Assembly: GCA_016930515.1 (NCBI GenBank)
Contig: JAFGGO010000096.1
Span: 1 to 24,251, forward strand
Source: Promethearchaeota archaeon
GTDB lineage: Archaea > Asgardarchaeota > Lokiarchaeia > Sigyniarchaeales > SOKP01
Direction: 5' to 3'
DNA length: 24,251 nucleotides
Shown: positions 1 to 19,221 of the stretch, one piece after another
Numbering within the stretch: position 1 is the stretch's first letter
Layout of the letters: the number at the start of each line of letters is the position of its first letter
Notes under the pieces: generated by a model
What the model saw: only the letters and a program-made list of their open reading frames with translations
The model's database searches: none
Told to the model about the DNA's origin: nothing
Program-made: the position numbers and the translations under genes

Positions 1-121
1 AGTTTTTTATATTATAATAAAATAATAATCATTAGATTTAATTCAAAACATAAACTTAAATTTCCACGTTATTTATTTATATTAAAATTAAAAAGTGACC
101 TACACTACAAGTCTGATTATC

Positions 122-505
122 ATGTCTGATTTAACCGCAGAAGAAGCACAAAGCTTGTCAAATTTCTTGGGAAACATAACGGAGCACACGGAATTAGAAG
201 CACTTGCTTTAATCACCAGAGAAGGTCTGAAACTCGCGTTCTCTTCGATCCCTACATACGATGTAAATGCAGATTTGTTTTCTAGCATGAGCGCGGTGGT
301 ATTGCAGAGTGCTTCCGAAGCAATTGCTTCTTTGGGATACCATCAGATGCTTGAAGTAGTATTGCGTGGCTCAGATGCATTTATTATATTAAGTGCCGCA
401 GGCAGATTTTTCCTAATGGGTGCCTGTCGAAAGCTAGAAGATTTGGGAAAAGTCGTTACCGTATTCAGGTATTACGCAGGTGAAATAGCCAAGCGATATC
501 CTTGA
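122..505 (+). CDS. Roadblock/LC7 (MglB/LAMTOR-like) domain protein
   Basis: About 127 aa with the Roadblock pattern: helix, ALALITREGLKLA strand pair, DLFSSMSAVVL helix, EVVLRGSDAFIIL, LGKV. ATG at 122 is preferred over the GTG at 95 in the ORF track. Confidence 0.85.
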   Translation: MSDLTAEEAQSLSNFLGNITEHTELEALALITREGLKLAFSSIPTYDVNADLFSSMSAVVLQSASEAIASLGYHQMLEVVLRGSDAFIILSAAGRFFLMGACRKLEDLGKVVTVFRYYAGEIAKRYP

Positions 506-578
506 AATTCTTTTTACTTTTAATTTTAAATCAATGACGGTTGTTTTATGTTATCTAAATTTAAAAAAATGATATCAA

Positions 579-2870
579 ATGACCGAAATTAAAATCTTTG
601 TAGATGTTGACGAGAAAACCTCTGGAAGATTAGTAATTTGTCCAGAAAATATTAGAAAATTAGGTTTAAAAAACGGAGATACCGTTGAAATCGTTAACCA
701 AGAAAATAAAAAAAAGACAACTGCAGTAATTCAAGAATCTGACCTCATTTTAGATTTTGCAGGTCAATTTTCCAAGAATATCCTGGTTGCGGTAGATTTT
801 GATGGAGTGGAACTAACCGTTAAACCATTAGCAGGTGTTGCTCAACTTACAACTCCTTTGCCTAAAAAAGCAAAGAAAGTAAAATCTAAGAAATCGGCCG
901 GAAAAGCCCCCTCAGCACCAGTTTTTCAACCTCCTCCTAAACCCCAACCAGCACCTCTAAACGAGCCAATACCTATTCCATCTCCGCTTCAACCCACCTC
1001 ACCTTTACCAGCACCCGCCCCAAAATTCAAACCAACCCCTGTACCTCAGTTTCAACCATCTACAACCTCCATCCCCCCTGAACCGAGGCAATCTCAATTT
1101 ACAACACCAGTTCCTCAATTTAAGCCCGCACCTACTCAGTATCAAGCACCTGCGCCTATACCACCTCCTGCACCTACTCAGTATCAAGCACCTGCACCTA
1201 CACCACCTCCTGCACCTACTCAGTATCAAGCACCTGCGCCCGTACAATTTCAGCCTCCCCCATCAATACCCCCCGCACCAACTCGACCTCAATCGGTACC
1301 TCAAGCTACTTCAGCTGGAGCATACGCAACTCCTATAGATATTAACATGTTAAAACAACAGAAAAATGGCATTATCCTCAATCCCGTAGTGGATCCCTCA
1401 TTGCGAGGTGGAAGAGTTCAAATAAATCCTTCCGTACTACAATCTTTAGGTTTAGCTCAAGATATGCTAATAGCGTGGGAAGATCCTTCTACTAGAGCGA
1501 AAGGTTCGGCAAGAGTAGACGCTGTGGCGATAAATATGTCGGAGATAAGGATGAGTATAGACACAAAACAAGATACAAACATTCAATCACCTCAGATCGT
1601 TGTGTATTCAACTGAAACTTCTTTACAAAAAGCATCTCAAGTTACCTTAGAAGTTCGTTCGCAACCTAACCTCATGGGGTATTGTCAAGTAGGTCCAAAT
1701 GTTCAATATACACTATCGCTTCAACAAAATGATGTACTTCAATTCTCTGACGATCTTACAGGTGCAACCGGAGCGTGTAGGGTACAAATTATCGATTCAA
1801 TTCAGGGTAATATAATAGTAATCGATAGCGAAATTTTAGAAGCTTCTGGAATCGGTAGTTTTGAAGTTGGTGTTTCCAAAAACCAAAGGCAGATAATACC
1901 ATTGCAAAGCGTCTCATTAGGTTTGACCCCCATTTCGGGAGAAAATATGTGGCAAATAATTAGTATAGCGAGAACTAATATCGAGCCGCTTAAAGCGTGG
2001 TTGCAAAGACACATAATTTTCAAGGGCATAAAACTACGATGGAAAGAAGCGAATGTAGCCTGTTCAATAGTAAGTTGCGTGCCAGATTTAACAGGTGATG
2101 TTTTAGCACAAATTACACCAAATACAACTTTAGAGTTAGCACCAGTTGGTTTGATACCTTTTAACGCAATATTAATATTAGATATAAGTCGTTCCATGAT
2201 GGCAAGAGATGTATTGGTTTCGAATATCGCCCCAGCAATCGAGGGAATTAAAGCAGCAATGGAATCTCGAGAAGTTCAAGAATTTCTAGTCCATTTTAAA
2301 GAAGGAGTGAACATTCCAAGGAGAATCTCTGCAGCTTTTGCAGCCGTTTTATTCTTAAGCGAAAAAGTCGGAAGAGGATTTGGAGAAAAGGTTAGTGTAA
2401 TACGTTTTGCTGATGAAGCACAAGTTTTATCGTTTGGTAACAATTTTTTCATGGATTCTGCCTCTGGAAAGAAAGGTATTCTCGAAGAAGCTGCCCGTGT
2501 TGTCGTTGATCGAATTGGAAATGCATACGGACAAGCAACAAATATGGGTCAAGCAATGGTAGCTGCGCGTCAAATCCTTGGAGAATTTGATAAAATGAAT
2601 CCAAACCAACCTACCATGATTGTACTACTTACTGACGGCGTTCCAACGGACGGAGATGCCTTTTTCAACGAAATTAGAAAGTTTTCCGCAAATCCGAATG
2701 TCGTCATATATGTGATTGGATTGGGAAACCCTGACGATGATTTAATGACTCGGGCCGCAGCATTATGTGGAGGCGAGTATTACAAACCAGAAAACGCGGG
2801 AGATTTATTAATTTGGTATTCAAAACGTGCAAGAGATCTCACTGTTAAACTTAAAGCACATGGCCAATAA
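579..2870 (+). CDS. Cdc48/p97 N-domain-like (three double-psi beta-barrel repeats plus N2 subdomain), Pro-rich linker, C-terminal vWA domain
   Basis: The vWA has a complete MIDAS (LILD535ISRS, T654, LLTD686G) and ends VIYVIGLG...AALCGGEYY. The N-terminus GRLVICPENIRKLGLKNGDTVEI matches the CDC48_N pattern, with two more internal copies (GRVQINPSVLQSLGL; GYCQVGPNVQYTLSL). A CDC48_2-like segment (LKAWLQRHIIFKG...SIVSCVP...AQITPNTTLEL) precedes the vWA. Confidence 0.75.
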   Translation: MTEIKIFVDVDEKTSGRLVICPENIRKLGLKNGDTVEIVNQENKKKTTAVIQESDLILDFAGQFSKNILVAVDFDGVELTVKPLAGVAQLTTPLPKKAKKVKSKKSAGKAPSAPVFQPPPKPQPAPLNEPIPIPSPLQPTSPLPAPAPKFKPTPVPQFQPSTTSIPPEPRQSQFTTPVPQFKPAPTQYQAPAPIPPPAPTQYQAPAPTPPPAPTQYQAPAPVQFQPPPSIPPAPTRPQSVPQATSAGAYATPIDINMLKQQKNGIILNPVVDPSLRGGRVQINPSVLQSLGLAQDMLIAWEDPSTRAKGSARVDAVAINMSEIRMSIDTKQDTNIQSPQIVVYSTETSLQKASQVTLEVRSQPNLMGYCQVGPNVQYTLSLQQNDVLQFSDDLTGATGACRVQIIDSIQGNIIVIDSEILEASGIGSFEVGVSKNQRQIIPLQSVSLGLTPISGENMWQIISIARTNIEPLKAWLQRHIIFKGIKLRWKEANVACSIVSCVPDLTGDVLAQITPNTTLELAPVGLIPFNAILILDISRSMMARDVLVSNIAPAIEGIKAAMESREVQEFLVHFKEGVNIPRRISAAFAAVLFLSEKVGRGFGEKVSVIRFADEAQVLSFGNNFFMDSASGKKGILEEAARVVVDRIGNAYGQATNMGQAMVAARQILGEFDKMNPNQPTMIVLLTDGVPTDGDAFFNEIRKFSANPNVVIYVIGLGNPDDDLMTRAAALCGGEYYKPENAGDLLIWYSKRARDLTVKLKAHGQ
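1128..1240 (+). repeat. 42-bp in-frame tandem repeat, about 2.7 copies, encoding APTQYQAPAP(I/T)PPP
   Basis: Units begin at 1128, 1170 and 1212 (gcacctactcagtatcaagcacctgc...) and are near-identical at DNA level. Confidence 0.95.
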
Positions 2871-2888
2871 TCAACAAACCTCATTAAC

Positions 2889-2918
2889 AATTTATTTCTT
2901 AGTTTTCTTTCTTTTTTT
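2889..2918 (+). terminator. Oligo-T tract, putative archaeal intrinsic terminator
   Basis: T-rich run (tttatttcttagttttctttcttttttt) about 20 nt after the stop of the vWA gene. Confidence 0.45.
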
Positions 2919-2967
2919 ACCCATTTAGAAAACCCAATTAAAAATCTTAAGAGATTTTCAATAAACA

Positions 2968-2975
2968 TTTATATT
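2968..2975 (+). promoter_or_regulatory. Putative TATA box for a leaderless AbrB-ACT transcript
   Basis: TTTATATT begins 29 nt upstream of the ATG at 2997, which is typical archaeal leaderless spacing. Confidence 0.5.
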
Positions 2976-2996
2976 ATGATGTAAAAAATGTATCAT

Positions 2997-3404
2997 ATGA
3001 AGGAAGTAAGAATACTGACTTTAGATACGAGGGGTCGCATCGTCATACCTCAAATTATCCGAAAAAGCCTTGGTATCACGACAAACTCGCAATTAATGCT
3101 AGTGGCAGATTCCGACTCGAAAGAGATAAAAATTACCCCGATAGGAATGGACGATAAAAGTCAATATTTCAAATATAGAATTACCATGAAAGACGAGGCG
3201 GGTGCCTTGGGAAAGATTGCAACCACATTAGGTAAACTTGGAATTTCTCTTGTTTTCGGTGAATCCGTAATTGCTGAGAAGGACAAGGCAGCAATTTGGA
3301 CGGTTATTGGACCTAAACCCCCCCAAATGGATCTCGAAAAGCTCGACGAAATATTGCGAGAAGAAGGGAACGCGTTGCATACTGAAATAACGCCATTAGA
3401 GTGA
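2997..3404 (+). CDS. AbrB/MazE/SpoVT-family DNA-binding domain fused to an ACT domain
   Basis: N-terminal TLDTRGRIVIPQIIRKSLGI (swapped-hairpin signature). C-terminal ITMKDEAGALGKIATTLGKLGISL (ACT signature). Start 2997 is supported by TATA spacing; 2988 is the alternative. Confidence 0.85.
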   Translation: MKEVRILTLDTRGRIVIPQIIRKSLGITTNSQLMLVADSDSKEIKITPIGMDDKSQYFKYRITMKDEAGALGKIATTLGKLGISLVFGESVIAEKDKAAIWTVIGPKPPQMDLEKLDEILREEGNALHTEITPLE

Positions 3405-3540: not shown

Positions 3541-4491
3541 ATGGCTAAAAAAAAGAAGAAGGATAAGAAAAAGAAAGAAAAAAAGCTACAAGAAGAAGAA
3601 TCTGCGTCTGATGACGAGGCAAGCGAAGCTCAATCACTTCCAACCATTCAATTGGATAAGGCATTGCTTGAACAAATGGAGGAATCAGAAGAGATTGATG
3701 TCGCCTTAGAAAGTGCTAAAGAGACTCAAGAAGATCTGCAAGGACTCTTATCGAATATTTCCAAAGGTGATGGTTTCTTTCGTAGCCAAATCAAGGTTGA
3801 AATAAAAGAAGAGCAAGTTAAACCTCAATTATCATACAATCGACAAGAAAGCAATTTAGTAAACGATTTTTTAATTGAGGACGTTCCATTGACCGAACGA
3901 AAAATTAGCCGCTCTGAAATTAAAAATAGGACTCGTTTAGTAGACAGTTCGATTGAAAAAAAACCTCTATATGAACCACCACCTAAACCACCTGTAAAAA
4001 TTGGCATTCCAAAGGCAGTTCCCGCCAAGGAGCCTCCTCTTGATGGGGTAAGTGAAGAAAATAATGAGGTTTTAGAAGATGTCGAAGAACAAATGGAACC
4101 AAAACCAATTATTGAAGAAGTCCAGAAACCTATAAAGGAGAACATTTATCCAAAATTAGAAGCGTTTTTCACCGAACTTATCGAGGGATACGGTTCCCGT
4201 TATAAAATATGGGAAGATTCTATTTCGAGCGTGTTGTCTGTTTTACGAAAAATGAGAAAGGTCACCAAGACGAATACCGAGGATTTAGTAAAATCAATCA
4301 ACCAATCCTACGAGAAAATCCAAAAAGGTTTGTCGCAATTCGCAATAAAAAGAACTGAAATTGAAAAGATCGCAGAAATTGACATTGAATCTCTCTCCAA
4401 GCAATTTAAAAAGGTCTTAGGCATGTTAGAACTCCAAGTAAAAGAGTATCAACTAAAAAGACTCGCTGATGAATACATTCACGAACTGTAA
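3541..4491 (+). CDS. Hypothetical protein: poly-Lys N-terminus, acidic/Pro-containing disordered middle, C-terminal helical/coiled-coil domain
   Basis: 316-aa ORF starting MAKKKKKDKKKKEKK, with E/D-rich tracts, YEPPPKPP, and about 115 aa of amphipathic helices at the C-terminus. No family recognised. Confidence 0.7.
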   Translation: MAKKKKKDKKKKEKKLQEEESASDDEASEAQSLPTIQLDKALLEQMEESEEIDVALESAKETQEDLQGLLSNISKGDGFFRSQIKVEIKEEQVKPQLSYNRQESNLVNDFLIEDVPLTERKISRSEIKNRTRLVDSSIEKKPLYEPPPKPPVKIGIPKAVPAKEPPLDGVSEENNEVLEDVEEQMEPKPIIEEVQKPIKENIYPKLEAFFTELIEGYGSRYKIWEDSISSVLSVLRKMRKVTKTNTEDLVKSINQSYEKIQKGLSQFAIKRTEIEKIAEIDIESLSKQFKKVLGMLELQVKEYQLKRLADEYIHEL

Positions 4492-4544
4492 TGCCGCGAT
4501 TGAGATTGTTATTATAAAAACATATCATCATCTTTGGAAAACAC

Positions 4545-5720
4545 ATGTCATCAATAGAAGAATTGAAGAAAGATCCATTAAGGCCTTTAATTTTAGATTT
4601 TGGAACGTCTTCGTTCCGATTAGGTTTTGCAGGAGACGATTTTCCATTGATTATAGCACCTAGCGTTTATGTTAATATTACAGATTATTTGTTTACTTCT
4701 GACGCAATTGAAGGATTGGACGAGATCCTAGTAGGGGGGGAAAGCTCGCAGAATTATCTTTTTGGAGACGAGGCTTTAAAATATAAGAACATTCTTAAAA
4801 TTCGAGAGGTGAGAAAAGAAGATAATTACACCATTATATCTAAATTCTTCGATTACTACTACTCTAAATTAGAAATTGCCCCGGAATATCGTTATAAGCA
4901 ACCAATCGTGTTAATAACTTCTTTTTTGATGACTGAACTCGAAAAATCGAAATTTCAACATTTTTTTTTTAACGAGTTTCATTTTCCCAAGCTCCTTTTT
5001 CTTTCGGAAAGTCAAGCCATCATGGCGCCTTTACAAAAAATTAGCGCCGTTGTTGTAAATATGGGTGAAATGAAAACGTATATAAATTCTTTTCTTCACG
5101 GATTCAATCAAATCATGTCACGGGATGTATATCCCATAGCTGGAAAAGATCTCACGACATTCTTGTTGAATTTGTGTATAACACATAAAAAATCTGGAAA
5201 AAAAAATTATATCGATACTTTAATTGCTCGAGAAATAAAGGATAAAACCTCCACATGCGTTTTAAACGCAAAGGCAGAAGCAAAAAGAATCAGAGAAGGC
5301 GTAAATAAATACGATAAGATCATTAATTTACCAGATGGAAATTCTTTGATGATTAATTCCGAACGTTTCATGCTAGCAGAACCGTTATTTAATCCTAAAT
5401 TAATTCACATGGATTATTTTAGCTTGGCTGAAGCCATTTCTAAAGTAATTAAGACTTGGGCGCGAGAAGATTGGGAAGAGCTCCTCTCAAACATCATTTT
5501 AGCGGGAGGAGGAAGTTTAATTCCTGGATTAAAAGACAGGTTAAAAATAGAACTTAAAAATTTCTTTCCTGACAAGATCACATCAAAAATTAATGTGATC
5601 TCCTTGGCCGGGAGGGAACACATGAGCTGGATCGGCGCTTCGATATTGTATTTAAAAAATCAATTTCAGAAGGGATGGATTGAAAATAGTATTCAAGAAA
5701 ACTCAAACGAAATTAAATGA
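4545..5720 (+). CDS. Divergent actin-related protein (Arp-like, eukaryotic actin family)
   Basis: LILDFGTSSFRLGFAGDDFP matches actin LVxDNGSGMCKAGFAGDDAP. Also FGDEAL, IAGKDLT, AREIKDK, LPDGN..I.SERF.LAEPLFNP, NIILAGGGSLIPGLKDRL and SWIGASIL. Confidence 0.92.
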   Translation: MSSIEELKKDPLRPLILDFGTSSFRLGFAGDDFPLIIAPSVYVNITDYLFTSDAIEGLDEILVGGESSQNYLFGDEALKYKNILKIREVRKEDNYTIISKFFDYYYSKLEIAPEYRYKQPIVLITSFLMTELEKSKFQHFFFNEFHFPKLLFLSESQAIMAPLQKISAVVVNMGEMKTYINSFLHGFNQIMSRDVYPIAGKDLTTFLLNLCITHKKSGKKNYIDTLIAREIKDKTSTCVLNAKAEAKRIREGVNKYDKIINLPDGNSLMINSERFMLAEPLFNPKLIHMDYFSLAEAISKVIKTWAREDWEELLSNIILAGGGSLIPGLKDRLKIELKNFFPDKITSKINVISLAGREHMSWIGASILYLKNQFQKGWIENSIQENSNEIK

Positions 5721-5749
5721 TTTAACTTTTAAAAAAAAGATTGATTAAA

Positions 5750-8251
5750 ATGTCCGAAATTTCAGATATCAAGAAAAAATTCCTTTCCAATTTTCAAAGT
5801 AAGGTTTTACAAGGTCGAAAGCTTTTATCAAGTGCAAATCACGTTTGGGCAGACAAATTGCTCAACGACCTTTATTACGATATAGAAAAAACTGAATGGA
5901 TTGATGTCCAAAAAAAGAAACAGTTGATAATGATCATCGTAAACACATGGCATCTGTACATAAATTCCCTCATAAAAAGAGACGAATCTGGTGTTCATTA
6001 CGATAGAATAAAATACTTGGATGCATATAATCGATTTTTCACATTTTTATCAAGACTCGATGATTTTTACCACTTCAAGATTTTTTTTACAAACCTGCTC
6101 AAATCTTTCATAGAAATGGAAGAACTCTCTCATTCAGGAATTTCAAAATTTATTAATTCTTTTTGCAATAAATTATACGACAGGGAAGAATACCTCGAAC
6201 TTATAGAACTTCAAACATTATTAATGTATTTAAGAAAATCGGTCCTTCCAACAAAATTATTTCTTTTTGGAATGGAATATCTCAATAAGATTGTCCAGAA
6301 ATTAGTCCCAGATAAGAGAGGACTGTTTATTGCTGTCTTTCTGGAAAATGTATGTATAAAATATAATCTCAATACCGAAGGACAGGAATTCGTAAATGAA
6401 ATGAATAAAATATTAGTAAATAGGCTTCCAAACGATTTAAAGAACGAATTTGGAAAGCTTGGAAGAGTCGCAATAAACGAACGAACATTCCCGACAGTTT
6501 TACAAGACCTAACGGATCTCGTGTATTACTTAAACGATATTGGAGAAGATTTATGGATTCTAATAATTATTAGATACATTCAATCAAAAATTGAGATTTT
6601 TCAATCATTTCCCGAAGCGATTAATTACATTAGGCAATTTATCGAGCTTTCAATCAATAGGGGCAGATATAAATTAGCTTTTGAGATTTACGATTTTATT
6701 GAAGATTTATTCATATTAAAGTCGGATTTAGGCTATAGCAACATATTAGTAGAATTATGGGTTGAGGCTTGTAAGAAATTCTTGGAAGTTAAAGAAAGAA
6801 CATATTTACTCCAATCGCTTACGAAACTCGGAATGAATCTTAAAATCCCTAGGACAAATGCTCAAATCCTCCACTTTTTTCACACATGTAACTATCTATG
6901 GATGTTTAAATCGTTGTTCTACTCCATCGAAAAACAGGATTTTTGGAGGATGATGTTTTATAGAGCTCTGTTTGAAGAAGGAAACGTGAATTTAGCTTCC
7001 AAAATATTGCCCTACCTAGATGCTAATTTAAAACCCTTATTGACTGATTTAATAGCATTAAAAGAAGATTCGATTTCTTTAAAAGAGCAATTATATTCTC
7101 TTGATAATGGAGAGGATATTTTTAAGGAAGAACAATCCTTAAAGAAATGCATAATTCGAATAGGTTCTGATGGATCTATATCATATAGGATTGAAACAAT
7201 TAACAACTCCATTTTGGATGGAAATGTGTCTCAAGAGCATTGGAACGATTCTATGATGTTAGAGATATATTTAGACCTTTTTTCTTTTAATTCTACTAAA
7301 AAATATCAATTTAGTTTTAACGATCTCGGATCTCTTTTTTACTTATTTTTACCCAAGAAAGTTAAACAAATCATTTCAACTATTGAACAGTCTGCGAATA
7401 ATGCCTCTCCTCAATTATATATAATATTAAAAAAAATAACGATACCTTTTGAGATTGTTCAAGGAAATAAACACCTAGCAATACTAGTCCCGATCTCGTA
7501 TAAAGTAGGAAAATCTAAAATTGAAGGTGTTTCTCTTGAAAGCAATACAAGGTCTGAGTCTCCTAGTGATTTGAAAAATGTATTGATCATCGAATCTACT
7601 AATTCTATTCATCCTACGAAATGGAGCGAGAAGAACCAGAAAAAAGAACTTTTATTTCCTTTTTTAGGAGGAAAAAATCAGCTTTCACACGCATCAGCGT
7701 TCTTTAATTCAATCAATAAAATTGGATCCATTACTCTTATCTCAGAAGATCAAGCATCCAGGGAAAGAATAATTACTGAAATTTCTCAAGGAAACCACGA
7801 TATCATCCATTTTATTGGAAATATTTTCTTTTCAAAAGCCAGCCCTCAAGACAGTTATATTCTAACTCAAGATAAAAATATTGTTAAATTCAAGGAATTA
7901 TTCAACGAAATAAAAACTAAAAAAAAATTGCCATTCCTCTTTTTTGATGCTCAAATTTACGATTCTGATGCGAATTTGATTGAAAATACCAGAAATCAAT
8001 TTGGAGATATTTTATCAGAATTTGATATCAATTTGGTTATGGGGATAATTACAAGAAATTATCCAACATTTGACAGTAATGCAAACCAAATCATTGAAGA
8101 TTTTTATATCAATCTGCTTGGGAACGAATCTTTAGGTGACGCCATTATTAACGCAATCAAGTCTAAATATCAAGAAAACATCATTGATTACGAATTGGGT
8201 GCAAAAATAACTTTATTTACGATCTTTGGTTCTCCTTGGAATAAATTATAA
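5750..8251 (+). CDS. Helical (TPR/solenoid-like) N-terminus plus C-terminal CHAT (caspase/separase-like, clan CD) domain, predicted catalytically inactive
   Basis: CHAT landmarks appear in order: LGSLFYLFLP, IPFEIV (consensus LPWELL), NVLII, HDIIHFIGN (consensus DILHFAGHG), FLFFDAQ (consensus LVxLNAC), FYINLL.NESLGDAI, FTIFGSP (consensus FVLYGDP). The N-terminal ~450 aa look all-helical. ATG at 5750 is preferred over the TTG at 5741. Confidence 0.7.
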   Translation: MSEISDIKKKFLSNFQSKVLQGRKLLSSANHVWADKLLNDLYYDIEKTEWIDVQKKKQLIMIIVNTWHLYINSLIKRDESGVHYDRIKYLDAYNRFFTFLSRLDDFYHFKIFFTNLLKSFIEMEELSHSGISKFINSFCNKLYDREEYLELIELQTLLMYLRKSVLPTKLFLFGMEYLNKIVQKLVPDKRGLFIAVFLENVCIKYNLNTEGQEFVNEMNKILVNRLPNDLKNEFGKLGRVAINERTFPTVLQDLTDLVYYLNDIGEDLWILIIIRYIQSKIEIFQSFPEAINYIRQFIELSINRGRYKLAFEIYDFIEDLFILKSDLGYSNILVELWVEACKKFLEVKERTYLLQSLTKLGMNLKIPRTNAQILHFFHTCNYLWMFKSLFYSIEKQDFWRMMFYRALFEEGNVNLASKILPYLDANLKPLLTDLIALKEDSISLKEQLYSLDNGEDIFKEEQSLKKCIIRIGSDGSISYRIETINNSILDGNVSQEHWNDSMMLEIYLDLFSFNSTKKYQFSFNDLGSLFYLFLPKKVKQIISTIEQSANNASPQLYIILKKITIPFEIVQGNKHLAILVPISYKVGKSKIEGVSLESNTRSESPSDLKNVLIIESTNSIHPTKWSEKNQKKELLFPFLGGKNQLSHASAFFNSINKIGSITLISEDQASRERIITEISQGNHDIIHFIGNIFFSKASPQDSYILTQDKNIVKFKELFNEIKTKKKLPFLFFDAQIYDSDANLIENTRNQFGDILSEFDINLVMGIITRNYPTFDSNANQIIEDFYINLLGNESLGDAIINAIKSKYQENIIDYELGAKITLFTIFGSPWNKL

Positions 8252-8422
8252 AATAATATTTTTAACAAATATGTTAATCTAATTGACTACTTTATCTGTT
8301 TTATTTGTTAATGAAATGCATATGGATTCGACATGCAAAATCATTTATATGAATTTCTTTTTTATAATATTTAAAATAATTTCTAAGAGCGATAATAAAT
8401 AATTAATATTGGTGTGTTTATT

Positions 8423-8959
8423 ATGAGTGATCGAATAATAGAACTAAGACTAGAAAATCGGCGTCTTAAAGAACAAGTACAAAATTTGGAAAATAAGGTT
8501 CTATCGTTGGTTGGTGCAATCAACATTCAGACCTCAGGCGTGTTCGCAAACACGAAACACGTGTTAAACGACTTGATCTTGGAACTACTCAGGCAAACAG
8601 AGGGACGACTCAATGTGGTATCCCCAAAAATCGGAAAATTCTACGCCACCGAACTTAAAAACCTTGCGACCAAGGGAGTTGAAATTTTTATCATAACTAA
8701 CGACAGGGGTGGAATGCCAGGAGAGCATAGATTAATTTACGACGAGATAAAAGCAACCAACGGGATTAAAGTCGTGAATAATCCAAATGTGAGGTATTTA
8801 TTAGTGTTTAATGCAACAAACGCCATATATGCAGGCGGATCGTTAGACAAAGACGAATTAGAACGCTCCATATTAATCGCAACTACGGTTGAATCAAAAT
8901 CAAAACTGAAAAAAATAAACGAAATTTTTAGCTTGATGCTTCCATCATTTATGAGATAG
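8423..8959 (+). CDS. N-terminal coiled coil plus PLD-like (PLDc_2/TrmB-type) domain lacking the HKD motif
   Basis: Heptads IIELRLENRRLKEQVQNLENKV. PLD-fold pattern ILELLRQTEGRLNVVSP...LKNLATKGVEIFIITN...IKVV. The HxKxxxxD position reads RYLLVFN and GSxN reads GGSL. Confidence 0.65.
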   Translation: MSDRIIELRLENRRLKEQVQNLENKVLSLVGAINIQTSGVFANTKHVLNDLILELLRQTEGRLNVVSPKIGKFYATELKNLATKGVEIFIITNDRGGMPGEHRLIYDEIKATNGIKVVNNPNVRYLLVFNATNAIYAGGSLDKDELERSILIATTVESKSKLKKINEIFSLMLPSFMR

Positions 8960-9052: not shown

Positions 9053-11254
9053 ATGGTCGAAAATAATAAAATAATAGATTCTAAAGATATCTCACGCCTT
9101 TTTGGACTGAGATCGAGAATTTTTAAATTAATTGTGGATTTCTTCAAGAAAAATACAAAAAACAAGCAAAATTTGGATTTCAAAGAAAAATTGGATTCAT
9201 GGAAACAAGTATATGGAAGTATTTATAGTGGCGTGCTTGATAAAACGCTCTTTTTCAAGCATTCCTATTTTTCTTTAATATTAAAATCATTTTTTTTAAT
9301 TAAGTTAGGCGTAATCCAAAATTTAGATTTCGAAGAAATTTACGACGATAGCATTTCGAACGATTTAGAAGCCTTTCAAATTTTTGAATATGAACACTTT
9401 TATTGGATTGATATTCCCAAAAAGGTTTTTCAAGAAATTTATGAGGAACTAGAAGGTATTACCTTTGCTTTGCAAGATTTATTTATCGATCTCTACCAAG
9501 AACTTTTTTTTGCCGATCTTCGACACAAAATAGGAGAATTTTATACGCCTCTGAAGCTCGTATCTAAGATGGTAGAAGATTTCTACGAGTTTGGAACCTT
9601 AATATTAGATCCTTCTTGCGGATCAGGAAGTTTTCTAACCAATATCGTGATAAAAATTTTAAAAACCGATAATACTTCTAATGAAGAGAAGATCGAAGCG
9701 ATTAATAATGTTTACGGCTTTGATATTAATCCGTTAGCGATTTTTACGGCAAAGATAAACATGTTTCTAATCTTCCTCGAATATTTTAACATTGGAGAAG
9801 AAAAAATTCCACAACTCAACTTATTTATTGTTGATTCTCTTTTCCCTGAAAAATACGAAATGAAAATGATGTGTCAAGTTAAAAAATTATATAACTCGTT
9901 TGATTTAGTTATCGGAAATCCCCCTTGGATAACATATAAAGACTTGAATAGCAATGAATATCAAGCAGATGTGAGGAACTTAGCAGACCAACTTGAGATC
10001 AAGCCATTTAGTCAGTACATTACTCATATAGAATTGGGTGCTTTGTTTTTTTATGCAGTTACTAAATTCTTAAAAATTGGTGGAAAGGTGTTTTTTATTA
10101 ATCCAAAAAGCGTGTTAAATGGGGATCATTGTTTTTTATTTAGATCGTTTTCTATCTTTAACGATCTCGAAATTTGGGACTTTCCAAGCACTAAAACTCT
10201 CTTTTCGATACCTCATATTTGTTTAAAAGGGACCTATATAGGAAAGGATAATGGAGCATCCATCAAGACTAAATATCCTATCAAAACGAAAATATTTAGC
10301 GATGATATTGAATTTATGGAAGAGACGCTATATTCAAGCTTGAAAATAGAAGCTAAAGGAGCGAAATTAATTCTTCCCGTATATCAGCTCAAGTTACTGA
10401 GTAAAATCTCTCATAGTCCCTATAAAAATAAGTTTCACCAAGGGGCTACCCTAGTACCTAGAACGCTTGTTTTTTTTAAGATAAAAGAAAAGAACTCGCA
10501 GTTTGTATCCATTTCTTCTGACCCGGATGTTAGCAGCACTGCAAAAAAAGAATGGAATCTCGAGATTTCAGAACGCCAAGTAGAAAAAAAATTTATCTTC
10601 AAGTCGTATCTCAATAAGAATTTAGTACCTTTTTGTTTGAAAAAGTTCCATCGGATCTATCTACCTATTGATGATAATTTTCTATTTGATGTTGAACACT
10701 TGAAAGCATATTCACAGGCTTATGAACTTTACAAAGAGATTAACAATTTATATATGAATAATAAAAAACCCACTACAAACATTCAAGGGTTATTCGATAA
10801 TCTTAACTATTGGAACAAGTTAACAAAGCAAAGGAACAACGAGAATTATCTCGTAGTATACAATGCTTCGGGATCAAGTTTGAAGTCTGCAGTCATAAAT
10901 AATTTTAAGAAAAACATAATCGTACCCTCGGAGAATTATTATTTTTCCACAGATTCTAAAGATGAAGCGTATTATCTTTCAGCTGTTCTAAACGCACCTA
11001 TTATATCGAAAAGTATTAAAATTATAAAGAGCTCTCGCCACATACATAAAAGACCATTTTCGTTTCCCTTACCGGAATTTGATGATAATAACAGCGATCA
11101 TCAAGAAATAGCACGAAAAGGGAGAAAATATAATGCTGCCGTTCAAGATATGGTAAATAATAATTCAACTATTAACGCAAACAAGGTAAGAATGCTCTTG
11201 CATAAAAAATTAAGAAAGCTCGACATTCTTGTGGAAAAAATTGTTTTCAAATGA
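9053..11254 (+). CDS. N6-adenine DNA methyltransferase (gamma class, Type IIG/IIL-like MTase-TRD) with no recognisable endonuclease domain
   Basis: GEFYTP, motif I ILDPSCGSGSF, GFDINPLA, motif IV VIGNPPW. TRD-like C-terminus (QGATLVPR, EAYYLSAVLNAP, RHIHKRP). Confidence 0.88.
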   Translation: MVENNKIIDSKDISRLFGLRSRIFKLIVDFFKKNTKNKQNLDFKEKLDSWKQVYGSIYSGVLDKTLFFKHSYFSLILKSFFLIKLGVIQNLDFEEIYDDSISNDLEAFQIFEYEHFYWIDIPKKVFQEIYEELEGITFALQDLFIDLYQELFFADLRHKIGEFYTPLKLVSKMVEDFYEFGTLILDPSCGSGSFLTNIVIKILKTDNTSNEEKIEAINNVYGFDINPLAIFTAKINMFLIFLEYFNIGEEKIPQLNLFIVDSLFPEKYEMKMMCQVKKLYNSFDLVIGNPPWITYKDLNSNEYQADVRNLADQLEIKPFSQYITHIELGALFFYAVTKFLKIGGKVFFINPKSVLNGDHCFLFRSFSIFNDLEIWDFPSTKTLFSIPHICLKGTYIGKDNGASIKTKYPIKTKIFSDDIEFMEETLYSSLKIEAKGAKLILPVYQLKLLSKISHSPYKNKFHQGATLVPRTLVFFKIKEKNSQFVSISSDPDVSSTAKKEWNLEISERQVEKKFIFKSYLNKNLVPFCLKKFHRIYLPIDDNFLFDVEHLKAYSQAYELYKEINNLYMNNKKPTTNIQGLFDNLNYWNKLTKQRNNENYLVVYNASGSSLKSAVINNFKKNIIVPSENYYFSTDSKDEAYYLSAVLNAPIISKSIKIIKSSRHIHKRPFSFPLPEFDDNNSDHQEIARKGRKYNAAVQDMVNNNSTINANKVRMLLHKKLRKLDILVEKIVFK

Positions 11255-13358: not shown

Positions 13359-13973
13359 ATGCCAAGCCGAAGAGGAGACGGCACGCTCGTGTTCAAGATA
13401 TGCTTTTACGGTCCTTCTTTAGGCGGTAAAACAACAGCCCTCGAATGGGTATACAACCGGGAAGGTCTTGCTTCAGGAGACATGCAACAAATTCAAGACC
13501 CCACGGGAAGGACCTTGTTTTTCGACAGAGTCGTTGCACGGGTTTCGAATGTCGTGTTCCAAGTATACACCGTTGCGGGCCAAAGAAGGCATAAATTCCA
13601 GCGTCAAACGGTATTAAAAGGTACGGACGCAGTCATATTCACATGGGATAGCTTGATCGACCAATGGGCTGAAAACATCTGGTCTCTCAAGGAACTTCTT
13701 AGATTCTATGGAGGTAAGCTGATTCCTCCGAGTATTGCAGAACCCCCTGAAGTACCACTAGTCATTCTTGCAAACAAGCGAGACCTCGACGACATCGTAG
13801 AGGTATCTAAAATTCGGGAAGTACTAGATAAAGCCAAGCTTAATCATTGCCTTATCTACGAAACTATTGCGATTACGGGAATTAATGTCAAGCGGGCATT
13901 TGTCTACGCTGCCCGCCAAGCAGTCCTTAATCATTATAAGAAGCTCTCAGGAAAATCCGTCGAAAGCGCATAA
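13359..13973 (+). CDS. MglA-family small GTPase (Ras superfamily)
   Basis: KICFYGPSLGGKTT (G1), GRTLFFD (MglA switch I with the intrinsic Arg), YTVAGQ (MglA-type TxxGQ in place of DxxG), NKRD (G4), ETIA (G5). Confidence 0.9.
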   Translation: MPSRRGDGTLVFKICFYGPSLGGKTTALEWVYNREGLASGDMQQIQDPTGRTLFFDRVVARVSNVVFQVYTVAGQRRHKFQRQTVLKGTDAVIFTWDSLIDQWAENIWSLKELLRFYGGKLIPPSIAEPPEVPLVILANKRDLDDIVEVSKIREVLDKAKLNHCLIYETIAITGINVKRAFVYAARQAVLNHYKKLSGKSVESA

Positions 13974-14719: not shown

Positions 14720-17170
14720 CTAATCTTTTTGAGGTTGATCCTCTATGTATCGAGCACACGCTCCAATAGCCACGACTGAATCCTCCTTGTAGAGCTTGAT
14801 AACTCGCACGCCTTTCGACTTTCTGTGAGTTAGCCTAATTTCTTCGATAGGGGTTCGGATAACTTGTCCTTGCTCTGTTCCAATGAGTATATCCTCATCT
14901 TTAGCAATTTTAACTGCGATTACTTCATCATTGTCTTCTAGCGTAATGTTAATCACGCCTTTTGCGGCACGCCCCGTCTTCCTGTATTCGTCCATTTTTG
15001 TTTTTTGACCCTTGCCGTTTTTAGTAAGAGTGAGAACATATTCTTCGTCCGTAACCAATAAAGAACTAACGATCTGGTCGTCTTTTCTGAGATGCGCTCC
15101 TTTGACACCCATCGTGTTTCGCCCTAGCTCTCTAAGCTCGGATTCGTCGAACCTGATTGCATATCCAAACTTCGTTGCTAAGAAAATATCCTGCAGTTCG
15201 TTTGTCATACGACGGACCGATACTAATCTGTCGTCTGGTCTGATTTTTTGAGCGCGTATACCTGTTTTTTTGATTCTCGAAAACAATTTTAAAGGAGTTT
15301 TCTTAATAGTTCCGTTTTCAGTAACCAGAATTAACATATCATTCGTTTCAAAACTATGAATGGGAATCATATCGGCAATGTCCTCGTCTGTTTTCATGGA
15401 AAGCATGTTAACAATGGGTTTCCCCTTGGCAGTTCTTTGTTGAAGCGGGATTTCAAAGCATTTTTTCGAGTATACTCGCCCTTTATTGGTAAAAAAAAGA
15501 ATATTATCGTGCGTAGAAGCCACGAAAAGGTCTTTGATGAAATCCTCGTCTCTTACCGTCATGCCTTTTTTCCCACGACCTCCTCGACCTTGAGACTTGT
15601 ATTCTTGAAGAGACATTCTCTTTATGTAATTATTATTTGACAGTATTACGATAGTAGTTTCTTTTTTCACGAGGTCTTTTTTTTCAATTTCTTGAGTATC
15701 CGTTTTTTCTTCGCATATCTCGGTTTTTCTCTCGTCCCCGTATTTTTTGCTTAGTTCTGTCAATTCTTCTTTTATGATCGATAATTGTATGGCTTTACTT
15801 TTGAGTATTTTTTGAAGACTTTTGATGGTCTTTGTGAGTTCCTTTTGCTCATCAACAAGTTTTTGTTGTTCTAAATTTGTTAATCGGGACAATGGCATCG
15901 AGAGTATCGCTCTTGCTTGAACCTCGCTTAATTCGTAGGTTACCATGAGTTTATCTCTAGCCTCGTTTGTGTCTTTCGCTTGTTTTATAAGAGTTATGAC
16001 ATTATCAATGTCGTTTAGCGCAATAAGAAGTCCGTCTACAATGTGGAGTCTTTCTTCCGCTTTTTTCAGGTCAAATTCAGTTCTCCTAACAATGATCCTG
16101 ATCCTATGGTCGATGTATTCTTGAATGAGTTCCCTGAGCGTGAGGATCTTGGGTTGTTTCCCGTCGTTTATTAACACGAGATTAATAACATTAAAATTAG
16201 ATAGCAACCTGGTTCTTTTATATAGAACATTCTTGATTACGGCAGGTTGAGCACCTTTCTTCAAGTCGAGCACGATCCGCATGCCTCGCCTATCAGACTC
16301 GTCTCTCATGTCTTTTATGTCCTTAAGAACGCCATCTCGTATTAATTGAGCAATTGATTCAAGCAAGGTTGTCTTGTTTAACAAATACGGTATTTCCGTT
16401 ATAATCAAGCGAAAGTCCGTTCCTTTAGTTTCGACTTCAATTCTACCTTTAACGATAATTTTTCCGACTCCCGTGGAGTAAGCTTCATAAATTCCTTCGG
16501 GATTTGTGATTATGCCACCAGTTGGAAAATCAGGTCCTTGGATTATTTCTATTAATTCTTCAAGAGAAATTTCTGGATCATCGATCGTGGCTATTATTCC
16601 TTCGCAAATTTCCTTTAAATTATGTGGAGGCATCGAAGTAGCCATTCCAACGGCAATTCCTTTTGTGCCATTTAAGAGCATGTTGGGAAGCTTGGAAGGC
16701 ATATATTTTGGCTCTTCCAAGCTATCGTCGAAATTGGGCTGAAAATCAACCGTTTCCTTATTAATGTCTTCTACTATCTCGTTTGCTATTTGTGAAAGTC
16801 GTGCTTCCGTATATCGCATGGCGGCGGGTGGGTCGCCGTCAATTGATCCAAAATTACCTTGAGGATCTATGAGAGGATATCGTAAAGAAAAATCTTGACC
16901 CATTCGTACTAAAGAGTTATAGACGGCCATATCTCCGTGCGGGTGGTACATTCCAAGCACGATTCCAACAGTTCTAGCGCATTTTACATGTGGCCGATTG
17001 TAAGTATAATTATTATCGGCCATTGCAAATATAATTCGTCGATGTACTGGCTTCAAACCGTCTCGAACATCAGGAATTGCCCTGCCAACAACCACGGACA
17101 TTGCATAGTCGATGTAACTACTTTCCATCTCGTCTTTTAAAATAACTTCCCTAATTTTATCCGTACTCAT
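14720..17170 (-). CDS. gyrA: DNA gyrase subunit A
   Basis: [23 protein letters not shown], catalytic AAMRYTE, GPDFPTG, GyrA box QGRGGRG and C-terminal pinwheel repeats. Confidence 0.97.
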
Positions 17171-17217
17171 GTTAATAATAACCCTGTTTGATTAAAGCGT
17201 TATTGAATAAATTTTAT

Positions 17218-19221
<2,004 letters not shown>

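Follow-up and report, generated by a model that had tools for sequence, protein, structure and literature searches.

Downstream of a divergent actin-related protein (Arp) gene, members of one Lokiarchaeia order carry a gene for a solenoid-CHAT pseudo-protease, and the N-terminal solenoid of the pseudo-protease is predicted to grip the pointed end of the Arp. The two genes are inherited together as one module of a four-gene cassette, whose other module encodes a helical protein (CC) and a pseudo-PLD. Below, we set out the evidence for this arrangement and for the view that the Arp and the pseudo-protease may act together as a noncatalytic adaptor.

The window, that is, the entire 24,251-nucleotide contig analyzed here, comes from a 4.0-Mb genome that is 94% complete, contains four actin-family genes, and belongs with Lokiarchaeia according to its relatives. 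Four co-oriented genes on the forward strand, in the order CC-Arp-CHAT-PLD, encode the CC protein (positions 3541..4491, 316 aa), the Arp (4545..5720, 391 aa), the solenoid-CHAT pseudo-protease (5750..8251, 833 aa counted from ATG; an alternative TTG start at 5741 would add 3 aa) and the pseudo-PLD (8423..8959, 178 aa). They are separated by gaps of 53, 29, and 171 bp, and the ORF coordinates agree with the arrangement given in an earlier, sequence-only reading of this DNA. Each of the four genes is intact and single-copy in the window genome. Comparison of close relatives yielded dN/dS values of 0.04 to 0.29 for all four genes, indicating that all are kept by purifying selection, just as the sequence-only reading had taken the intact ORFs as a sign of selection rather than decay.

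Outside the window, the Arp gene is located immediately upstream of the CHAT gene in approximately 77 other genomes, which represent 18 genera in three families of a single Lokiarchaeia order. Arp orthologues, full-length solenoid-CHAT proteins and CC proteins are present in all three of these families, f1 (the family of the window genome), f2, and f3, whereas family f4 and some 240 genomes from other Asgard classes yielded no CC or full-length CHAT protein. A comparison of gene neighborhoods across Asgard genomes, suggested as a check when the cluster was first noticed, revealed the order CC-Arp-CHAT-PLD at the mapped loci, conserved in three families and beyond close relatives. Together with the dN/dS values, this shared order argues against a chance arrangement.

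The genes flanking the cassette differ between families. In f1, the upstream neighbors are gelsolin-like, Roadblock, poly-Pro/vWA, and AbrB-ACT genes, an N6-methyltransferase gene follows the cassette in most genomes, and the conserved block is wider than the cassette, including a methyltransferase and a DEAD helicase gene; in f3, the gelsolin neighborhood is missing and the cassette is preceded by PHP and Hef-like helicase genes. The unrelated genes of the wider f1 block, and a 3.8-kb insertion tolerated between Arp and CHAT in one genome (locus L092), would fit a neighborhood of co-regulated or hitchhiking genes without any Arp-CHAT complex. We consider this quite improbable, because the four-gene core stays constant while its flanks vary and because, as described below, Arp and CHAT were lost jointly twice, survived a rearrangement as a pair, and share a predicted interface that passes its controls.

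In many genomes, the Arp-CHAT gap is between −4 and ~30 bp, and at 11 of 37 measured loci the genes overlap or are at most 3 bp apart, a spacing that is suggestive, though not more than that, of an operon. A single RNA run for the G021 locus produced one 37-kb contig that spans the whole 18-kb region at flat depth; since this contig covers genes on both strands, DNA carry-over is likely. A scan for promoters and terminators, a method ill-suited to archaea, performed at chance level.

The Arp is a clear member of the actin family PF00022 (154 bits against a Pfam cut-off of 27, E value of 5e-45), and its best matches among solved structures are actins. It is 26% identical to the Lokiactin of the same genome and forms, together with the f2 and f3 proteins, one long-branched clade apart from Lokiactin, within which the tree follows the family groupings. 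The cassette is also present in “Candidatus Lokiarchaeum ossiferum” (G016), where the Arp gene of the syntenic locus L067 matches the two qPCR primers that were published for UYP47647.1. Based on monophyly (95% support) and synteny, the window Arp belongs to the UYP47647.1 orthogroup.

Residues involved in nucleotide hydrolysis and in nucleotide binding have fared differently. At the position of the actin catalytic residue Q137, the window protein carries E155 (5007..5009, forward strand); this position is E in 43 of 53 f1 sequences and H, S, D, or N in the other families. The D154 position is mostly N in f1, the H161 position is Y or R, the G158 position varies, and the H73 loop has been lost. 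Among the f1 sequences, D11 (47/53) and G13 (53/53) are retained, K18 is replaced by R (49/53), G156 and K213 are invariant, and the equivalents of G301 and G302 are kept, which suggests that the f1 Arp probably still binds nucleotide; the binding motifs are more degenerate in f2 and f3. No hydrolytic residue is conserved throughout the orthogroup, but bacterial actins use a Glu at the Q137 position for catalysis, and loss of ATPase activity is hence likely rather than certain. Residual activity is conceivable in the 43 f1 members with this Glu and would count against the adaptor reading that we favor. Of the three substituted catalytic motifs claimed in the sequence-only reading, those of CHAT and the PLD stand (see below), whereas the Arp keeps most nucleotide-binding residues, and for this protein we infer, rather than observe, a dead ATPase.

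The surfaces that actin uses for polymerization are altered as well. In the barbed-end cleft, the equivalents of Y143, L349, M355, I287, and the C-terminal F375 are replaced, those of G168, F169, I345, and L346 are kept, and 4 of 24 positions match Lokiactin; among the lateral filament contacts, 2 of 14 positions do so. A variable tail takes the place of the C-terminal helix, and W305, R307, G186, and F187 are newly or still conserved, forming a family-specific set with W378. Given its separate clade and the changes at Q137, D154, H161, the H73 loop, and the filament contacts, the Arp groups neither with polymerizing actins nor with Lokiactin. No longer Arp fusions were found, an observation to which we attach little weight.

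The solenoid-CHAT protein was modeled with a pLDDT of 86.8 and comprises a helical solenoid (aa 1 to 450), a pseudo-protease subdomain (approximately aa 464 to 590), and a caspase-fold domain (approximately aa 607 to 833). The model matches Csx29 (Z 19.6), another CRISPR-associated TPR-CHAT protein (Z 18.9), the separase protease domain (Z 18.2, root mean square deviation of 3.8 Å over 289 residues), and DdvA (Z 14.5), and Pfam CHAT was matched in 30 of 37 members. These structural and Pfam matches identify a caspase-hemoglobinase fold with a pseudo-protease subdomain and corroborate the separase/Csx29 architecture that had been recognized from the sequence. To locate the catalytic positions, we used a related Asgard Ras-CHAT fusion that retains the dyad: its HFAGH motif aligns to HFIGN of the window protein and its NAC motif to DAQ, which places N691 (7820..7822, forward strand) and Q735 (7952..7954, forward strand) at the positions of the catalytic His and Cys, respectively. 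Among 127 orthologues, the His position is N in 126 and His in none, and the Cys position is Q in 119 and Cys in none. The window protein has the separase/Csx29 architecture but, judged by these residues, is not an active member. Separase cuts kleisin at ExxR and is inhibited by securin; cleavage of this type is unlikely here because the His-Cys dyad is absent.

We predicted the structure of a complex between CHAT residues 1 to 455, which comprise the solenoid, and Arp residues 6 to 386. The Arp-CHAT complex scored 0.74, compared with 0.00 for the best of three controls; of 80 solved pairs, 58 attained the mark, compared with 2 of 110 mismatched pairs, counts that are valid only roughly with the alignments used. 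Runs agreed in at least 96% of contacts, and the partner pLDDT was at least 85. The predicted contacts connect the N-terminal solenoid helices (aa 17 to 141, including the invariant L25 and W33; 5798..6172, forward strand) to Arp residues 45 to 64, 79 to 84, 224, and 263 to 265. Arp subdomain 2 with its remodeled D-loop equivalent (aa 45 to 84; 4677..4796, forward strand) provides the main predicted contact and, with a loop of subdomain 4, corresponds to the pointed end of actin; the barbed face is left free in the predicted geometry. On the CHAT side, conservation is slightly higher at the interface than in the remaining solenoid (0.58 versus 0.51, P = 0.035). On the Arp side, the interface shows no such excess over the remainder of the protein (P = 0.23), and the D-loop equivalent varies strongly from family to family. 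We know of no solved complex between an actin and a TPR-CHAT protein that the prediction could be recalling. An interface between the products had been named as a check on the cluster, and the one predicted here passes its controls. The prediction supports binding, and we consider it probable that the Arp and the CHAT solenoid bind each other.

The history of the cassette shows which of its genes belong together. CC directly adjoins PLD in five genomes of the genera g15 (G009 and G010) and g18 (G013, G014, and G015), and in the four of these that were searched by profile, including the single-contig genome G013, neither an Arp orthologue nor CHAT was detected. In a tree of CC and PLD, g18 is nested beside L. 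ossiferum (98%) and g15 is placed elsewhere (97%), implying that Arp and CHAT were lost together twice, independently; both lineages kept Lokiactin. Genome G012 is rearranged to Arp-CHAT-CC, its PLD gene lying elsewhere, and Arp and CHAT remain adjacent; the Arp contig ends within the CHAT N terminus and has a 17-bp overlap with the next contig. Genome G023 contains CC, a 205-aa C-terminal CHAT remnant, and PLD, which reflects either a third deletion or a misassembly. Because CC stays with PLD where Arp and CHAT are both missing, the cassette consists of two modules, with Arp and CHAT inserted between CC and PLD. The PLD protein is the oldest part of the cassette and its most widely retained member, and in the sister order, several genomes have one to three PLD homologues near GTPase-fusion and surface-protein genes.

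These results divide the sequence-only reading, which had proposed a noncatalytic Arp-containing scaffold or signaling complex from a cluster that includes CC, with the PLD as a bracketed extra. Its core, the Arp together with a dead protease, is supported by synteny, short gaps, joint losses, and the predicted interface. The inclusion of CC in a single obligate complex is not supported, as CC persists with PLD where Arp and CHAT are absent, and the supposed extra, the PLD, is the member most widely retained.

The CC family is confined to one order. The window protein has a Lys-rich N terminus, a variable, acidic and Pro-containing disordered middle, and a conserved C-terminal helical domain (approximately aa 197 to 316). 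The conserved C-terminal 120 aa show a 3.6-residue helical periodicity without a clear heptad; of the former label “disordered coiled-coil protein,” the disordered middle and the helical character stand, and “helical” is safer than “coiled coil.” A polybasic N terminus is present in 51 of 93 CC proteins and Pro-rich tracts in 20 of 93. The profile search of 1.8 billion representatives gave 81 matches, the strong ones covering the same C-terminal domain, and no remote relatives of the domain were found there, in the ESM Atlas, or in the PDB. A dynein-tail match (E value of 0.42) was rejected. CC and PLD are unrelated to each other.

The pseudo-PLD consists of an N-terminal leucine-zipper helix (aa 2 to 31) and a single PLD-fold domain that lacks HxK and ends in a near-invariant LP[ST]FMR motif. 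Its model (pLDDT of 87.7) has the PLD fold, matching NucT (Z 19.1, root mean square deviation of 2.1 Å over 141 residues), FAM83A (Z 17.1), TrmB (Z 14.5), and TrmBL2 (Z 13.6). The catalytic signature HxK(x4)D plus GSxN is not retained: the His position is V, I, or T and the Lys position is Y, F, or S, and none of 39 sequences has His or Lys at the HxK positions. A single PLD-fold domain is shared with FAM83 DUF1669, the TrmB effector domain, and Nuc/NucT; unlike Nuc, the pseudo-PLD is without HxK, and in place of the winged helix of TrmB it has the zipper and LP[ST]FMR. This tail resembles the C-terminal peptide by which FtsZ docks on FtsA. However, it forms the end of the PLD fold and persists in homologues without a nearby Arp, and its likeness to the FtsZ peptide is thus a lead only.

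The TrmB and TrmBL2 effector-domain matches, hits of the Pfam TrmB/FilR1 models to some PLD members, the polybasic CC N termini, and an AbrB-ACT gene that often lies upstream would suit a nucleoid or transcription-regulatory assembly, working like nuclear Arp modules, in which the zipper-PLD would be a TrmB-type ligand sensor and a basic CC tail would bind DNA. Such an assembly appears improbable, as the cassette encodes no HTH protein or remodeler ATPase, NucT, Nuc, and FAM83 outscore TrmB, and in the sister order the neighbors of PLD homologues are GTPase-fusion and surface-protein genes rather than DNA regulators. The same folds also recall defense: TPR-CHAT proteins (Csx29 and DdvA) and PLD nucleases are defense associated, and with the N6-methyltransferase gene that follows in most f1 genomes, the cassette could be a domesticated defense system with the Arp as decoy or sensor and TPR-CHAT and PLD as former effectors. 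We regard this as very improbable, given that both putative effectors are missing their catalytic residues, that PADLOC returned no match to known anti-phage defense for the four proteins, and that a single copy of the cassette occupies a fixed locus, with an Arp tree that tracks the family groupings.

With little better than even confidence, we lean toward the view that Arp and CHAT constitute a nonpolymerizing, nonproteolytic adaptor heterodimer serving an older CC/pseudo-PLD unit. The two proteins would form a stable 1:1 heterodimer, in which the first solenoid repeats would clamp the pointed end of the Arp via the D-loop equivalent and the LPD loop of subdomain 4. Clamped at this end, the Arp would be unable to polymerize in that direction, and with its remodeled barbed-end cleft it would probably not seed Lokiactin filaments. 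It may instead act as a nucleotide-loaded monomeric adaptor whose barbed face exposes a conserved surface particular to the family, and the dead caspase domain, located at the other end of the solenoid, would be a second docking site. The pair would be an accessory to the two-gene unit of CC and zipper-pseudo-PLD, which would be able to work alone; as with nucleotide binding and the lack of polymerization, a physical link to CC/PLD is something we infer. The survival of CC and PLD without the pair could also mean that the modules are functionally separate, which speaks against this view. Our best guess for the process served is regulation of the actin cytoskeleton or the cell cortex.

To our knowledge, Lokiactin is the only Asgard actin relative tied to filaments, and the Arp-solenoid pair could alternatively be a pointed-end cap or seed for such filaments, comparable to Arp2/3 or dynactin Arp11, with CC and PLD as anchors. 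The free barbed face, the kept G168, F169, I345, and L346 equivalents, the gelsolin-like, Roadblock, and poly-Pro/vWA genes that immediately precede the cassette in f1, and the Pro-rich tracts in about one-fifth of CC proteins are consistent with this role. We nevertheless hold it to be unlikely, since most cleft and lateral filament contacts are replaced, the gelsolin neighborhood is absent in f3, the pair was lost in two lineages that keep Lokiactin, and the Arp transcript is severalfold below that of Lokiactin (PMC9834061). A bolder version, likewise doubtful, is a four-subunit archaeal Arp machine that arose independently of the eukaryotic ones from two domesticated defense-type folds; here, the dead TPR-caspase would cap the pointed end CC/pseudo-PLD would provide the anchor, and the machine would cap, seed, or position filaments of Lokiactin, much as its functional counterparts Arp2/3 or the end of dynactin do in eukaryotes.

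Eukaryotic Arps are subunits of dedicated complexes. The Arp11/p62 end of dynactin, Arp2/3, and the nuclear Arp modules of INO80/SWR1 likewise combine a divergent, probably nonpolymerizing Arp with a dedicated partner, and the predicted occlusion of the pointed end resembles that by DNase I or the dynactin pointed-end complex. In contrast to these assemblies, no orthologous subunits were detected, and the cassette is dispensable and restricted to a single Lokiarchaeia order, which makes the likeness an analogy or parallel rather than demonstrated ancestry. Separase, Csx29/Craspase, and DdvA (PMC11506125) have the same architecture of solenoid, pseudo-protease, and caspase fold, and in separase and TPR-CHAT proteases, the N-terminal solenoid binds a regulatory partner, as predicted here. 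Those proteases, however, keep the His-Cys dyad (H862/C907 in DdvA) where the window protein has Asn and Gln, and the partners of separase and Csx29 are securin and Cas7-11, whereas the predicted partner here has an actin fold. Among archaea, the crenactin “arcade” cluster combines an actin-family gene with small partners, two of which bind crenactin (Izore et al. 2016, PMC5173319). Crenactin is a polymerizing actin with arcadin-2 in its hydrophobic groove, whereas the window Arp is a divergent paralogue, predicted to be bound by an unrelated protein at the end opposite to the arcadin-2 site.

As a sequence, the Arp is known: UYP47647.1 is one of three non-Lokiactin homologues in L. ossiferum and is transcribed below Lokiactin (Rodrigues-Oliveira et al. 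2023, PMC9834061). The available part of that article gives no function, neighborhood, or partner for UYP47647.1, its accession appeared in no other paper of the literature searched, and the accessions were not found in the L. ossiferum supplements. Literature searches, whose coverage excluded subscription papers, returned nothing relevant on an Asgard Arp-CHAT cluster; within these sources, we found no description of the neighborhood, partner, or interface of this Arp. The pseudo-protease is the first testable partner to be named for a functionally unassigned archaeal actin relative, with an interface predicted at residue level, natural deletion lineages for comparison, and a locus that is present in the cultured L. 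ossiferum. If binding is confirmed, an actin paralogue would have become a subunit of a nonpolymerizing complex in archaea as well, with a caspase-fold pseudo-enzyme as its partner.

Synteny around the cassette in family f1 extends to both sides. Upstream lie the Roadblock, CDC48-N/poly-Pro/vWA and AbrB-ACT genes (window 95-3404), and the window itself is probably preceded by a gelsolin-like gene on contig C140, the end of which is 28 bp from the end of that contig. Downstream of the PLD gene, most f1 genomes retain an N6-adenine methyltransferase gene (window 9053-11254), which is unusual behavior for a gene of the restriction-modification type. The cassette is also often found within 5 kb of an MglA/Arf-like small GTPase gene (window 13359-13973), whose product shows 81 to 92% identity across f1. 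Farther along this archaeal contig, translation alone identified putative gyrA and gyrB genes of bacterial type (window 14720-19203).

In most genomes of family f3, the PLD gene is followed by a gene for a protein of approximately 405 amino acids without a Pfam match (L071:11436-12653), regardless of whether Arp-CHAT is present. Individual loci carried local variants of the cassette: a 3.8-kb insertion between Arp and CHAT (L092, genome G104), a duplicated N-terminal fragment of Arp (L102, G130), a CHAT gene with no PLD gene after it (L094, G066), and an apparent deletion of Arp and most of CHAT (L119, G023). Separate from the cassette Arp, a paralogue of 513 to 552 amino acids with a C-terminal extension was detected in both families (L003:1474-3015 and L127:5463-7127).

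Several genomes of the sister order encode one to three zipper-pseudo-PLD homologues each (L111 to L118), neighbored by Arf/Roc GTPase-fusion proteins, a long coiled-coil and winged-helix protein, and 2,300-amino-acid Ig-rich surface proteins. The sister order also has a fusion of a Ras/Rab-like small GTPase with a CHAT domain that retains both residues of the His-Cys dyad (L100:4708-6372, genome G003), and a comparable fusion lies at L101:5789-7444. Such a protein may be a caspase-fold protease under GTPase control.
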